Below, in pieces: positions 15,207 through 42,497 of a stretch of 64,000 bases of DNA. How positions within the stretch are numbered: position 1 is the first letter of the stretch; each line of letters opens with the position of its first letter. The notes beneath the pieces were generated by a model that searched no databases, had not been told where the DNA came from, and was given only the letters and a program-made list of their open reading frames with translations. A program made the position numbers and the translations under genes. The stretch comes from Candidatus Woesearchaeota archaeon (GTDB lineage: Archaea > Nanobdellota > Nanobdellia > Woesearchaeales > GW2011-AR9). The stretch spans positions 160,001 through 224,000 of the forward strand of contig JABHQW010000008.1 in assembly GCA_018696595.1 (NCBI GenBank), read 5' to 3'.

Positions 15207-16379
15207 TCAGCTTAAACCAACAAACCCTTCAACTAAAGATTCTTTCCCATCTTGAACAGAAGTAACTGTAAATACAGTTTCAGAGATTTCTTCATCTTTA
15301 AATTGATAAACAACTTTATCAGAACAAAGATAAGCCTTATTCAACTCCTTCACTTCAGGACAATTTCCATTAGTTTTAAAACTGAATATTTTCTGATAAT
15401 TGAAATTTGGTTTAGCTGTAAATACTTCACTTGCAGTATTAGGGAAACTATTACTACTTTTAACAGCAAGCCAGTCAGTATAATAAAAATTATAACTTTC
15501 TATACCACTTACTGGAATAAATTCAATAGCAGTTACATTAGTAACAGAATCAAAAGTAACAATAAGATCTTCAGGAGAGAAAGGTAAAGCAGGACTAAAG
15601 TCTAATGCTAACTGAAATTTATTATTTTCATTTACTTGAACACAAAATGGAACTTTACGATCTTGTTCTTCATAATTGTCCGCCCCACAAAATTCATAAC
15701 CCCAACTTCCCATTTTATTCTTATCCAGACAAGACTTTAAATCTTTACTATTCATACAGGTATTAACCAAAACTTCGGCTTGATTTCTAACTTTAATATA
15801 ACCTTGACCAAAAAATGAACCAACTTTAACTTTGAAATTAGGATTGTAAAAATAGTTTAAATAAAATGGTTTTAACACATAAGACTCATAACTGGAAAAT
15901 AAACCCGTGTTCTTTAATTCCAGAGGAATAGCATCCCAAGAAGAAGTGATGACTTTTTTTTTACTACTTTTACCAATCAAATAACCCTCTGAAAAGAAAA
16001 CCTGATCGTAAGTAATTCCTGTTTCAGAAATGACATAATCGTTTATCTTATTCTTTATACTTTCATCGGCTTGTAATTCACAAAAACCATTTTCTTTATT
16101 CCAAAAAGGATAATTCTTTTTGTAAATACCACAACCAAAATCGTTCGCCAGCTCCTCTTTAGATAAACCTTGTACTGCCAAACCAACTGCACTTCTCGCA
16201 TTTTGATCAATAAATAATAAATCTTTTTCTGCATCTAATGTTGCACGAACAAAACTAAGCTGCCAGACACCTTTTGTTTCTGTACCTAAATCAAGATTAA
16301 CAACTAGTAAAAAGTACAACCCAATGGATGCAATTACACCAAACAGGATCCAATGAAATACTGCTCCTTTCTTGTTCAT
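15207..16379 (-). CDS. class III signal peptide pilin-like protein, 390 aa, with Cys-containing body and FN3-like C-terminus
   Basis: MNKKG/AVFHWILFGVIASIGLYFLLVV. Confidence 0.75.
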   Translation of the reverse strand: MNKKGAVFHWILFGVIASIGLYFLLVVNLDLGTETKGVWQLSFVRATLDAEKDLLFIDQNARSAVGLAVQGLSKEELANDFGCGIYKKNYPFWNKENGFCELQADESIKNKINDYVISETGITYDQVFFSEGYLIGKSSKKKVITSSWDAIPLELKNTGLFSSYESYVLKPFYLNYFYNPNFKVKVGSFFGQGYIKVRNQAEVLVNTCMNSKDLKSCLDKNKMGSWGYEFCGADNYEEQDRKVPFCVQVNENNKFQLALDFSPALPFSPEDLIVTFDSVTNVTAIEFIPVSGIESYNFYYTDWLAVKSSNSFPNTASEVFTAKPNFNYQKIFSFKTNGNCPEVKELNKAYLCSDKVVYQFKDEEISETVFTVTSVQDGKESLVEGFVGLS

Positions 16380-16385
16380 TTTTAT

Positions 16386-40000: not shown

Positions 40001-42497
40001 CGAATGTTTTAACTTCTTCAGTAAATTTAACTTTAAAATCAACGTTCATAGTTGTTTCTTTATCTGCAATCGCTTGAGAATTCCAACAACCATAATTTAC
40101 CCCGCTGTCCAAATTATTAAATTTCTTACTTTTTCCAGAATAATATTCTTCTTCATTATTTCCACAACAATTTGCGCTTCCTTCATCTTCATCAATATCA
40201 CCATCTTTTCCTAACCAAGCTTCTGGCCCATAAATTTCTGTACAAATTTCTTGACCATCAATATTACTTAATGCAAGACCTTGATCTAAATCTGTTAACC
40301 AAGAACTTTCATTTTTGGTAGAAGATGCTTTTCCAGAACAAAGAGCTGTGGGCTCATTATCATTGCTCAAGAAAAAATTTCTCACCTTTATTTTTATTGT
40401 ACCTGAATGACTACTAATTTCGATTGCTCTTACTCCTTTAATTCCTTCATCTAACCTAACTTTAACATGGGTCCACTTATCTTCATCAAAAAAGTTTTTA
40501 TTAACAGAATCAGCTAAAACACTTTTTTCAAATAAAACTTCATCGTTATAACCTACCATTTTTAAGTTAATGAATGCAGGAAATTGGTGATCTTCTTCCA
40601 ACTCCTCTTGGCTTAATGGTTTACAGCTTGTACCCTCTTCTCCACCACTTTCTAATTTACAAAACTGAACCATAAAATTAAGATATTGTTCCTCCGAAAA
40701 ATCTAGTGAAAACTGTTCCCCATAAAAATCACCATAATGTTTTTGTACTTGAACCACTACATTTTCTCCATAAAACTCTCCTGGTTTGGTTTCAGTTCCT
40801 GATAAAGGTAAACTAAATAATCCTTCTCCAGGATATCTTCCTTTTACCCCTTCATTTTTTCTTTTGTTTTTTTCTTTTGCACATTCTGCCCAAGCATAAT
40901 GGTTTCCTTCTTTATAACAAGAAAAACGATTTAATGTTTCCAAGAGTATATCCTTGTTAATTATGCCAGTTTCTGGATCTTCAGGAATATCTTCTAAATT
41001 TGGATATTTATTTAACGGACCAATATCTTCTGAACTGTTACAAGTTAACCAATCATAAGCATTAGAAACAATATCATAAGGTGTTTCTTCTGGGCTTTTA
41101 ATTGTAAAAATTTTATACTTTGCTAGTCCTGAAGCCGAAACCCAACACCAATTATCGCTTTCTTTACAATATTCTACAGGAAAATCTCCTTCGTAACCTA
41201 CTAAATCTTCATTATCACTATGCAAACAAACATAATTACCACTAGCGTAAATTGCAATTTCCTCTTCAGTAAAATATTCACCTTTGAATTCAGCTGCAGA
41301 TTCTATCGCTCCTAAATCTTCCATGTAATTAAAACCACAACATCTTCCCCCATCAGCTGTAGGTAACCAGGATAAAGCTTGTCCATAAATGTTATTAGGT
41401 GTTGGTTTCTTTTCTTGGTTTTCATTATCTGTTATTGGAGGATCTCTGTTTTCACAAGCCCAAGGATTTAAATTACAATCATTACTTGTTTGTTCATTAC
41501 AATCATTATCTATTTCTTCACCTGCAGAATTTTTATCACCACAAATTTCTGCAGCTCCAGGATTAATACAAATTGCACATTGTCCATAAATAGGATCATC
41601 CTGACAATTAATAATGGTATCTGATTCTATGTCTGAACAAAAATCAGGATCATCTTTAGGATCATCAACACAATCTACATCGTCTGTAAATCCATCTTTA
41701 TCTTGATCAATGTAAAGCCGATCCCAAATAGGGCTAATACCATCTTTATCAATGGTACAATTATATAAACGTCCGTTTGCCCAAGTTACTTCTCCAATGT
41801 TTCCTGCAGAGGCAACTTCCGCTTCATTTTCATCTTCAAATCCTGTTACACCAGTACCTTCACAAAGGTGCCAAAATTGGTCATCTGCACAAAGATAAGT
41901 CTTTCCTTCTGGGGCTTTATGTTTAGCTGCATGAAAACCTTGCTGACCATCTTCAGTTTCCCCATCACAAACTGCAAATTTGGAACCATACTCTAAATAT
42001 TTCCAATCCTGATCTAAAATGAACCCTTCATCAATTGCCCCCACAGCGCCATCATTATCAGAACCACCATCTTGATCAACAATAATGTACCAACATCCCT
42101 TACGAGAGTTAATATTAGGAGTATCTAAAGGTGTATTTTCATTAAATTTACTAACATCACAATCTCCCCCCTCAGGATCTTCATCAACAATCACCCCAAC
42201 ACGTTGTGGCCCATTACATGTATCCCAGAACCAGTCTTTTTCACAATCAGCATCACTTCCTGATAATATTTCTTTACCAAAGCCGTAATTGTACAACCCA
42301 TCATTATCGTACCAACAATCACCACACGTTCCAGTTTCACAATCCCAAACACATGTTGGCAAATCCAAATATTTACCTAAAGAATAAACAGTATCATCAT
42401 GAATTGGCAAATCATAATAAGATGAAACAAGCCCAACATTAATTAATAAAAACATAATTAAAACTACAAAGATTAAACCTCTTTTTTTACTTATCAT
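37032..42497 (-). CDS. giant (1821 aa) acidic Cys-rich exported protein with a MopE-like metal-binding repeat and CBM-like beta domains
   Basis: MISKKRGLIFVVLIMF signal; DQDKDGFTDDVDC...INPGAAEICGD...IDNDCN; RNFISNAMFEK; many CC/CCG modules; no C-terminal TM. Confidence 0.8.
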   Translation of the reverse strand: MISKKRGLIFVVLIMFLLINVGLVSSYYDLPIHDDTVYSLGKYLDLPTCVWDCETGTCGDCWYDNDGLYNYGFGKEILSGSDADCEKDWFWDTCNGPQRVGVIVDEDPEGGDCDVSKFNENTPLDTPNINSRKGCWYIIVDQDGGSDNDGAVGAIDEGFILDQDWKYLEYGSKFAVCDGETEDGQQGFHAAKHKAPEGKTYLCADDQFWHLCEGTGVTGFEDENEAEVASAGNIGEVTWANGRLYNCTIDKDGISPIWDRLYIDQDKDGFTDDVDCVDDPKDDPDFCSDIESDTIINCQDDPIYGQCAICINPGAAEICGDKNSAGEEIDNDCNEQTSNDCNLNPWACENRDPPITDNENQEKKPTPNNIYGQALSWLPTADGGRCCGFNYMEDLGAIESAAEFKGEYFTEEEIAIYASGNYVCLHSDNEDLVGYEGDFPVEYCKESDNWCWVSASGLAKYKIFTIKSPEETPYDIVSNAYDWLTCNSSEDIGPLNKYPNLEDIPEDPETGIINKDILLETLNRFSCYKEGNHYAWAECAKEKNKRKNEGVKGRYPGEGLFSLPLSGTETKPGEFYGENVVVQVQKHYGDFYGEQFSLDFSEEQYLNFMVQFCKLESGGEEGTSCKPLSQEELEEDHQFPAFINLKMVGYNDEVLFEKSVLADSVNKNFFDEDKWTHVKVRLDEGIKGVRAIEISSHSGTIKIKVRNFFLSNDNEPTALCSGKASSTKNESSWLTDLDQGLALSNIDGQEICTEIYGPEAWLGKDGDIDEDEGSANCCGNNEEEYYSGKSKKFNNLDSGVNYGCWNSQAIADKETTMNVDFKVKFTEEVKTFVHKPIKADVTIKETHLKCDEDSDGNYLIDNGPIFGSSNYWGELEKTPLWWGYGDSAKSYWSCLEYPLCNGQEVYEKSSCYLVEDGFDELRDGLDDFTCEDLENYVEENYILSECETEIIESETRSVSFSIEESPVMVGEPITYNQYELFQAELISDEENPVEFYFYEPLNGDSDGDIKELVADDLPYENTEIYIMAEINEEFYEFDEITNFVGDEKLFSFPCDKPECIYPVPGIPEEEITITNPNSELYELYYLTFNQATGKMDEEYISEQKTFTEPGNIIVRKVAQQVIFVSPGEDYEFSDEAGFFGCQATVSLEGENKIPSDGNNLDYCSTKGGHFCAPSVTKELPGNEKYTVINSWDTTGITEVGYEIVPSESEDIDNYFSSLILNLKPAEPAFTAKERNETAKVLPARNFISNAMFEKDGVQLAHWEILLDGEVDDSEKGKINISDASVKLEDQETLRSERIAIPKNSSLIFTHNGSLELSYSITLVDKDGESEVIEFNEKTAEIKETKEYSYLRLEFFGPGILKDPMLQLDDGLGAASYNYEPFEERERSGLACCPEDHCWNGYACVESMVDSQYGQLAEHVDLGRDYRCIDGEWKHLPLKWDWNFDRWGFCSDLSQCFVTNEGLPDNSADDFYLGDAPTCINDEEYIFDHYCESGNWTSRTKFAASKLIEVSENDDFVLYCTEYRDALLEYEYKDGQLGGTGGYGTDEAETKDISLEIGDTGNQDKEIKICHPIGGDGDLNRLIPDQDNSCINNVCVLKFKGGDKVAFATTLNRNISGTNSFLIALGVPGMNVEEVCQGTGEEGFIKCDLSGLDLFDDADLWYEPSKKIVIFGKEGINVDPSLGKKIADWFKDLFGIENELSGQQGFIAKAKNFNELYLLSNGNKKVSAMQEFFANNKTLVAEYENFQTPICDYVDVYNKVPPVIELDVELQEILSGVKKLSCGLAVVNNQTSSDKVKVEIVSPHQEPLDYFWPQLTGKMRMS

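Follow-up and report, generated by a model that had tools for sequence, protein, structure and literature searches.

A conserved island of pilin-like and giant surface-protein genes in a Woesearchaeota genome: candidate subunits of a complex type IV filament

We analyzed a 64,000-nucleotide (nt) stretch of DNA from a Candidatus Woesearchaeota archaeon (positions 160,001-224,000 of contig JABHQW010000008.1, assembly GCA_018696595.1), referred to here as the window, and in particular a 27-kb locus at 15207-42497 that encodes pilin-like proteins together with giant surface proteins. Coordinates are window positions unless a contig is named, and genes are designated as in Table 1. The host genome measures 1.19 Mb in 8 contigs, is 97% complete, and has a G+C content of 32%; the locus makes up 2.3% of its sequence. 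Within the locus we found 20 open reading frames (ORFs), all on the minus strand and ranging from 41 to 2160 amino acids (aa) in length. Neighboring ORFs are separated by -4 to 102 nt, coding sequence accounts for 98.6% of the 27-kb span, and the probability that 20 genes would share one orientation by chance is approximately 2e-6. An earlier note on this DNA had described 20 co-oriented minus-strand genes with overlapping or near-touching ends, which is what we observe. The flanking genes are archaeal and include RadA, MCM, Cdc6, PolD, the p30 subunit of RNase P, and RPA. Those homologues of the locus proteins that bear a name are assigned to Candidatus Woesearchaeota or Nanoarchaeota. The DNA was matched in seawater metagenomes from 15 studies, and no RNA data set was among the matches listed. 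For several genes the start of the longest ORF lies too far upstream: the likelier start is the M of MNKKG or MNKKA in the 176-, 137-, and 108-aa ORFs, whereas for the 1092-aa ORF it is the M of MGKK. A scan for bacterial sigma-70 promoters and terminators returned 81 sites compared with 84.7 expected, a result that is not informative for an archaeon.

In 16 of the 20 ORFs, the protein begins with a short, basic leader that has [KR][GA] at its end and a hydrophobic helix directly behind it, the same number of such N-termini that had been reported earlier; the four exceptions are the 683-, 408-, 1821-, and 2160-aa proteins. We scanned the 1.19-Mb genome with a strict FlaFind-like regular expression and obtained 40 matches genome-wide, 10 of which fall inside the locus compared with 0.92 expected (P ~5e-8), an approximately tenfold enrichment. 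Roughly two thirds of the genome's class III-like proteins are encoded in the locus. To gauge how well the leader site is conserved, we counted it in the orthologues of 17 genomes representing 11 families. The [KR][GAS] site occurs in 12/12 orthologues of the 1092-aa protein (p1092), 17/17 of p179, 17/17 of p187, 20/20 of p119, 16/17 of p181, and 15/17 of p367, and across the order it holds its place even as the remaining leader sequence varies. The residue most commonly found at +1 is Gln (12/12 for p1092, 16/17 for p179, 13/17 for p187, 15/20 for p119, and 9/16 for p181), and Gln at +1 of the mature pilin is a trait of EppA-type substrates. In several families, an acidic residue is also retained between +2 and +6 of the helix, recalling Glu5, the acidic helix residue of bacterial pilins. 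When 13 families were compared with hhalign, similarity was confined to the leader and helix and no common head was detected; likeness limited to these two elements is the pattern among type IV pilins. The proposal that these leaders are class III signal peptides is thus supported by a site that is conserved across the order and mostly followed by Gln.

Synteny across Woesearchaeota genomes, a check suggested in the earlier note, proved to be extensive. The N-terminal 270 aa of p683 occur in 31 of 35 further genomes belonging to its family, and the surroundings were taken from seven of these relatives. In six other genera, all 20 genes, the two mini ORFs (41 and 50 aa) among them, have positional orthologues in the same order with 25-60% identity, and the seventh relative carries the distal half of the cluster. 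In these near relatives, the flanks of the cluster are invariably the RNase P p30 region and the RPA-like gene. Since their position is kept in all seven family members examined, the two mini ORFs are real genes. For greater distances, local profiles built from the near orthologues were applied to ten genomes from distant families of the same order. A core order was recovered in all ten, comprising the giant(s), p181, p367, p179, p187, the mini ORFs, p403, p119/p122, p234, p136, p176, p114, and p390, often followed by RPA. The p181 profile has matches in 181 of 201 sampled genomes of the order and in 27 of 35 genomes from other orders of the class. Conservation of p367 extends to every one of the 17 genomes examined. 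The families of p181 and p119 have hundreds to thousands of members in a large collection of proteins; none of these carries a Pfam domain, and almost all of those with a name are called hypothetical. Literature searches returned no description of the cluster.

We modeled p181 and p367 with AlphaFold2 using 17-row alignments; these were the only two pilin-like members folded. The p181 model (predicted local distance difference test score, pLDDT, of 88.6) has a helix at residues 6-60 and a beta-rich head, and the p367 model (pLDDT 86.9) has a helix at residues 9-62 together with a beta domain and, at its C-terminus, a four-helix bundle. Judged from these models, both proteins are pilin-like in build, with an N-terminal helix of about 55 residues and a globular head. 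In VIA, p181 scored Z ≤ 3.5 in a list dominated by the long helix, and the C-terminus of p367 had only generic four-helix-bundle matches, with Z up to 10.6. Comparisons in the Atlas indicate that p181 resembles hypothetical proteins of Nanobdellota; its weaker neighbors (TM 0.52 and 0.59) include archaeal clusters in which 17% of the members carry PF04021 (Class_IIIsignal) and 11% carry DUF7289. The neighbors of p367 are Nanobdellota hypothetical proteins only.

Complex prediction was carried out for one pair, p179 and p187, with the membrane helix cut off both proteins and with our own alignments. The two genes are translationally coupled neighbors, with the start of p187 overlapping the stop of p179. 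The complex score for this pair is 0.82, compared with 0.35 for the best of three controls. The mark against which such scores are judged is reached by 58 of 80 solved complexes and by 2 of 110 mismatched pairs, counts that are rough here because our own alignments were used. Contact agreement between runs was at least 93% and partner pLDDT at least 85. The predicted interface places the membrane-distal part of the p187 helix (residues 36-64) against the C-terminal strands of p179, and this model supports binding of the p179 and p187 heads to each other.

The leaders of the 1821- and 2160-aa giants consist of KKRG and then an h-region that ends in a polar or A-x-A-like site. The earlier note had regarded these leaders as ambiguous. 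Orthologue alignment led us to reject giant pilins here: the h-region, in both giants, in the 408-aa protein, and in their orthologues, ends in a small or polar site directly before a conserved GCYVYP-type domain, and for this reason we read the leaders of both giants and of the 408-aa protein as Sec signal peptides. A TATA-like box lies about 35 nt upstream of the 1821-aa gene, whose orthologues in 6 genera share 30-37% identity; the protein has no Pfam match, and an Atlas search among named clusters gave no usable match. The 2160-aa giant contains CarboxypepD_reg, fn3, and TSP3-like domains, the only such Pfam matches of the whole locus, along with immunoglobulin (Ig)-like domains and 15 sequons. 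It shows 38-51% identity within its family, and distant families were matched by local hidden Markov models with E-values down to 2e-113. Both ends of the 408-aa protein are paralogous to the ends of this giant (the Cys-rich N-domain and the C-terminal transmembrane helix with its Lys-rich tail). The 1092-aa protein, whose sole match to Pfam is a sub-threshold TMEM131-like Ig domain, is a candidate modular pilin or adhesin. The cleavage motif is present in only 2 of 10 orthologues of p683. The conserved N-terminal 270 aa of this protein occur as a free-standing gene of ~270 aa in most relatives, and p683 looks like a lineage-specific fusion. As a separate observation, residues ~330-430 of p683 match a different protein encoded approximately 3 kb downstream.

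A Pfam scan of the locus detected no ATPase, platform, or peptidase, in agreement with the earlier statement that it holds no ATPase, TadC, or prepilin peptidase. That the machinery would be encoded elsewhere was likewise upheld by a genome search, which gave an A24 peptidase, a FlaI/TadA-like ATPase, and a divergent GspF-like platform; the refuting condition set in the note, a genome devoid of prepilin peptidase or pilus ATPase, thus does not apply. The single Peptidase_A24 gene scores 59.4 bits against PF01478 (cut-off 26.5) and has both catalytic Asp motifs (SD..R and GGGD). The ATPase is a single 762-aa protein with intact Walker motifs that scores above the cut-off of PF00437; its matches to the FlaI and TadA models of NCBIfam (E-values of 4.5e-38 and 5.3e-34) are both below the equivalog cut-offs. 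It is present in 200 of 201 genomes of the order with 51-58% identity. The platform candidate is a 735-aa protein with 8 transmembrane segments, whose Atlas features score 0.98 to a cluster named for the GspF domain. Its gene directly adjoins that of the ATPase in 4 of 5 relatives, and the two lie on separate contigs in this genome. With respect to the locus, the machinery is on other contigs here and 70-190 kb away in relatives that have long contigs. Since no archaellin (PF01917) was matched at E ≤ 0.1 in this 97%-complete genome, the machinery is not that of an archaellum. We disregarded a KH-domain PilT-like ATPase on contig C7, judging it unrelated to pili. According to a 2026 census of type IV filaments (T4F) in archaea, the parts of such systems are scattered in DPANN genomes, with Epd-type (system 1) pilins; the census did not describe the present cluster and could not say whether the scattered parts work together (PMC13705601). 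The separation of the cluster from its putative machinery agrees with that scattering (PMC13705601).

Two side observations concern the surroundings of the machinery genes. Adjoining the A24 peptidase gene, two pilin genes flank a gene for a 638-aa Cys-rich protein (Table 1), an arrangement that we read as a second, small, classical-looking pilin set of the same genome. A signal peptidase I gene lies approximately 1 kb downstream of the ATPase gene.

Table 1. Features of the 27-kb locus, its surroundings, and the putative filament machinery. A slash in a leader marks the putative cleavage site; positions are those of the window unless preceded by a contig label.
Feature	Position	Strand	Characteristics
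1821-aa acidic giant, first gene	37032..42497	-	64 Cys; Sec-type signal peptide; no C-terminal anchor
1092-aa giant pilin-like protein (p1092)	33709..36987	-	leader ...NRKA/QITIFMIV; likely start ATG of MGKK at 36978
408-aa type I membrane protein	32460..33686	-	Sec signal; Cys-rich N-domain; transmembrane segment 219-237; Lys-rich tail
2160-aa acidic giant	25912..32394	-	80 Cys; Sec signal; C-terminal transmembrane segment 1973-1991; Lys-rich cytoplasmic tail
p181, first of quartet	25350..25895	-	leader MNKKG/MGIGQVF; KKA/Q in distant relatives
p367, second of quartet	24205..25308	-	pilin-like; beta domain and C-terminal four-helix bundle
p179, third of quartet	23664..24203	-	leader RKSG/QIRMTE; conserved Glu at +6
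p187, fourth of quartet	23101..23664	-	leader RKSG/QMEMIGL; Q, E(+3), and G invariant
Largest intergenic gap, 102 nt	22999..23100	-	TATA-like boxes; GAGGTG Shine-Dalgarno sequence 7 nt before p119 start
p119	22639..22998	-	leader DKKG/QGLSLNVIIIAA; small 4-Cys head
p122	22269..22637	-	leader MNKKA/SANMWWIIIG; N-terminus paralogous to p119 and p108
Mini-pilin 1, 41 aa	22147..22272	-	leader FKKG/ and single helix; headless
Mini-pilin 2, 50 aa	21990..22142	-	leader SKKG/METWMLVL; headless like Flp/EpdE
p683	19936..21987	-	N-terminally anchored; Cys-rich; acidic; TKK-L leader without G/A cleavage motif
p403	18712..19923	-	leader GNKA/IATAAL; duplicated in distant families
p108	18358..18684	-	leader NNKKG/SQQMWWII; 6 Cys; site in 7/7
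p234	17653..18357	-	leader MNKKA/MMVQF; site in 10/11
p136	17233..17643	-	leader MNKKA/NTILMIIFE; conserved Glu inside helix
p176	16727..17257	-	likely start MNKKG/QFEAARK at 17209
p114	16386..16730	-	leader MNKKG/MLDDLFD; site in 11/11
p390, last gene	15207..16379	-	leader MNKKG/AVFHW; site in 13/15; 560-690 aa in distant families
RPA-like OB-fold gene	14063-15124	-	conserved 3' neighbor of cluster; same strand; 82-nt gap
Second, smaller surface module	1971-6645	+	three genes
AT-rich spacer	49966-51285		1.3 kb; 24.5% G+C; upstream of cdc6; 26-nt direct repeat at 50283 and 50416
A24 prepilin peptidase	C6:274837-275673		PF01478 match at C6:275304-275645
Second pilin set	C6:271379-274695		pilin leaders KKA/AIGLSINT and KKG/SLNLSIQA
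FlaI/TadA-like ATPase	C8:8541-10829
Signal peptidase I	C8:6767-7414
Platform candidate	C1:25206-27413

Taken together, we think it probable that this gene island, conserved across Woesearchaeales and beyond, encodes the structural components of an undescribed and unusually complex type IV filament with attached giant surface proteins. Under this reading, about 16 proteins would be made with class III signal peptides, and the single A24 prepilin peptidase of the genome would cut their leaders after [KR][GAS]. The single ATPase and the GspF-like platform would extract the subunits from the membrane and drive their assembly through the N-terminal helices. The shaft may consist of small and highly uniform subunits, namely p119, p122, and/or the pair of headless mini-pilins, and the quartet p181-p367-p179-p187, whose gene order is strictly kept, may form a minor-pilin initiation or tip complex. 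A binding surface would be provided by the 1092-aa pilin-like protein together with the Sec-exported Cys-rich giants, namely the 1821-aa protein and the 2160-aa protein with its 408-aa paralogue. Cleavage, polymerization, the assignment of roles, and contact with other cells or a host are steps that we infer. The multi-subunit filament proposed in the earlier note is supported as far as the leaders, the two helix-plus-head folds, and the presence of machinery are concerned; the two giants with KKRG leaders and the 408-aa protein are Sec substrates rather than pilins.

That note had also named p119 as a candidate major pilin. This is plausible on the strength of the promoter-like gap in front of the gene, its strong Shine-Dalgarno sequence, and the uniformity of its family, which comprises at least 1740 proteins of 113-119 aa from Woesearchaeota and Nanoarchaeota. 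The two mini-pilins, which in lacking a head recall major pilins of the Epd/Flp type, are equally good candidates. The TATA-like boxes and the Shine-Dalgarno sequence make the 102-nt gap upstream of p119 a candidate internal promoter, and all six relatives have a gap of 47 to ~210 nt at this point. Tandem paralogues of the p119 type occur in distant relatives.

Several results weigh against a filament. Neither Foldseek searches of the PDB, which gave no match at E ≤ 0.001, nor VIA matched the p181 and p367 models to a solved pilin, and profile and single-sequence searches of PDB sequences with the locus families were also without a match. The known pilin families PF04021 (Class_IIIsignal/DUF361) and PF07790 (Pilin_N) have no match at E ≤ 0.1 anywhere in the genome or among the locus proteins, and Pfam and NCBIfam scans of all locus proteins detected no pilin family; the architecture is pilin-like by sequence and by model, and membership in any named pilin family is not established. 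On the side of the machinery, PF00482 does not reach its threshold anywhere in the genome (best E-value 0.46), the 735-aa platform candidate included, and the cluster stands beside the ATPase or platform gene in none of the genomes examined. The complex score of p179 and p187 expresses the confidence of the model rather than a measurement. A long N-terminal helix with an ectodomain is also the build of an ordinary type II membrane-anchored surface protein. Finally, sixteen different subunits is, to our knowledge, far above the number in any known filament.

Given these points, the explanation that competes best, one that we nevertheless consider unlikely, is a non-filamentous envelope complex in which the class III-type proteins, cleaved or not, stay in or at the membrane as struts or anchors for the Cys-rich giants, which would be the proteins of a surface layer (S-layer) or cell coat. 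This would be comparable to the Sulfolobus bindosome, whose class III signals serve to position proteins at the surface and not to form a pilus. In favor of such a complex, the 2160-aa giant is a type I membrane protein whose Ig-like and CarboxypepD_reg domains and sequons are typical of archaeal coat proteins, the near-universal presence of the cluster in the order among housekeeping genes fits a core envelope structure, and both the excess of distinct subunits over a simple pilus and the heads without a pilin fold match point the same way. However, a plain anchor has no need of the [KR][GAS]/Q site and the acidic helix residue that are kept across the order, and the headless 41- and 50-aa members could not anchor anything. 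The ATPase, platform, and peptidase are universal and no other large set of substrates for them was seen; moreover, Pfam scans of the locus detected no solute-binding or known S-layer domains.

We regard as less probable again a short pseudopilus machine, that is, a piston for type II-like secretion or Com-like DNA uptake, in which the quartet would be the tip and the giants would be cargo or docking partners. The four conserved minor-pilin-like genes that precede a small major subunit mirror GspH-K/GspG and ComGD-GG/ComGC. The RPA-like gene, which is of the single-stranded DNA-binding kind, adjoins the 3' end of the cluster in 7/7 near genomes and at least 4/10 distant genomes, and DPANN archaea depend on nucleotides from outside. 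Against DNA uptake or secretion, the RPA gene is probably the housekeeping one, Pfam scans of the locus revealed no nuclease, ComEC-like channel, or secretin-like gene, and the giants, which carry Sec signals, have no link to secretion by a pseudopilus. The notion that the locus is an artefact of chance or annotation, a collection of small membrane proteins with nothing in common beyond a basic N-terminus and a transmembrane helix, can draw on the frequency of MKKRG-type n-regions on Sec signal peptides of this genome, but it is contradicted by the positional orthologues of all 20 genes in an order kept across Woesearchaeales, as well as by the leader enrichment and the confident predicted folds of p181 and p367, and we dismiss it.

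If the locus encodes a type IV filament, the nearest known system for comparison is the Epd pilus (T4F system 1) of Methanococcus maripaludis, which has an 11-gene epd cluster and a separately encoded major pilin. Both have class III leaders of the KKG/Q type, a multi-gene cluster in which several minor pilins are combined with adhesin-like proteins, and a headless Flp-like type of pilin, and in both the pilin genes may lie apart from the machinery. Others have assigned DPANN pilins to Epd system 1 (PMC13705601). The differences are that Epd groups its ATPase and a dedicated peptidase with two platform genes in a single cluster, whereas the 27-kb locus is without any machinery gene and the genome has one 735-aa platform gene rather than two; that the locus has 16 pilin-like genes instead of a handful and adds three Sec-exported giant or Cys-rich proteins; and that no locus member reaches the Pfam or NCBIfam pilin models, PF04021 included. 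The locus may work like a T4F with many minor pilins, and by cluster content it is not a demonstrated member of the Epd type.

We also compared the quartet with the bacterial minor-pilin sets GspH-I-J-K of type II secretion, FimU-PilV-W-X-PilY1 of type IVa pili, and ComGD-GG of competence pili. As in those sets, four consecutive pilin-like genes stand in a fixed order beside a candidate major subunit, one member (p367) far exceeds the others in size and carries an extra helical domain, neighbors are predicted to form a heterodimer (p179-p187), genes for very large putative adhesins lie alongside, and an acidic residue is found near the start of the mature helix. Unlike them, the locus has leaders of the archaeal type, and its quartet is followed by another conserved block with about 8 further pilin-like genes. 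No homology to GspH/I/J/K or PilV/W/X was detected by Pfam or PDB profile match or by fold similarity, a result compatible with remote homology, and we take the resemblance to be one of organization only.

Two further systems share single traits with the locus. In the modular pilins PilB and PilC of Streptococcus sanguinis (PMC8179133), an N-terminal pilin module carries a large functional module, as would be the case in the 1092-aa protein. Similar arrangements occur in other Nanobdellota, where a p181-type module stands at the start of ORFs of 350 to ~1400 aa (for example G056:C1:69793-70350, G114:C52, and G166:C25) and, in one Atlas cluster, is fused to Peptidase_M64 (TM 0.77); this suggests that pilin modules carry enzymes or adhesins in those organisms. 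The pilin modules and cargo domains of PilB and PilC are unrelated to those described here, and the present system is archaeal. With the Sulfolobus bindosome (Bas), in which class III signals are found on sugar-binding proteins, the locus has in common the presence of class III-type leaders on many different surface proteins and a dedicated ATPase and platform, with no requirement for a long pilus. It differs in that its proteins are small, pilin-sized, and free of solute-binding domains, and in that the ATPase scores 37 bits against the BasE model, for which the cut-off is 1000.

By what means DPANN archaea attach to other cells and exploit them is still an open question, and hardly any Woesearchaeota are in culture. 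Attachment to a host is a plausible function for a locus on which an episymbiont would be spending such a share of its genome. More tentatively, and with rather less conviction than we attach to the filament itself, we suggest an undescribed organelle of most Woesearchaeales and related Nanobdellia: a T4F built from over a dozen different pilin-like subunits with a bacterial-style four-member tip and giant disulfide-rich adhesins that would serve episymbionts as a cell-contact apparatus for host attachment or feeding. The locus would be an archaeal case of the multi-minor-pilin organization that is so far known from bacteria. The locus is an order-wide, highly syntenic set of approximately 20 genes whose products are the obvious substrates of an ATPase, platform, and peptidase that are universally conserved, and it supplies testable targets in the form of antibodies or tags for cryo-electron tomography, cleavage assays, and metaproteomic N-termini that begin after KKG or KKA.

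Elsewhere in the window, we observed a second surface module on the plus strand. Its 670-aa protein has the leader KKG/QVTIY and shares a Q-x-T-I-F/Y N-terminus with the 1092-aa protein of the locus; the genes that follow, for a 610-aa Big_13 protein and for one of 278 aa, have stop and start codons that overlap. The AT-rich spacer upstream of cdc6 is likely, judging from its sequence, to be a replication origin, given its base composition and direct repeat, the turning point of the cumulative GC skew at approximately 44-46 kb, and the proximity of the genes for MCM, Cdc6, and PolD DP1/DP2.

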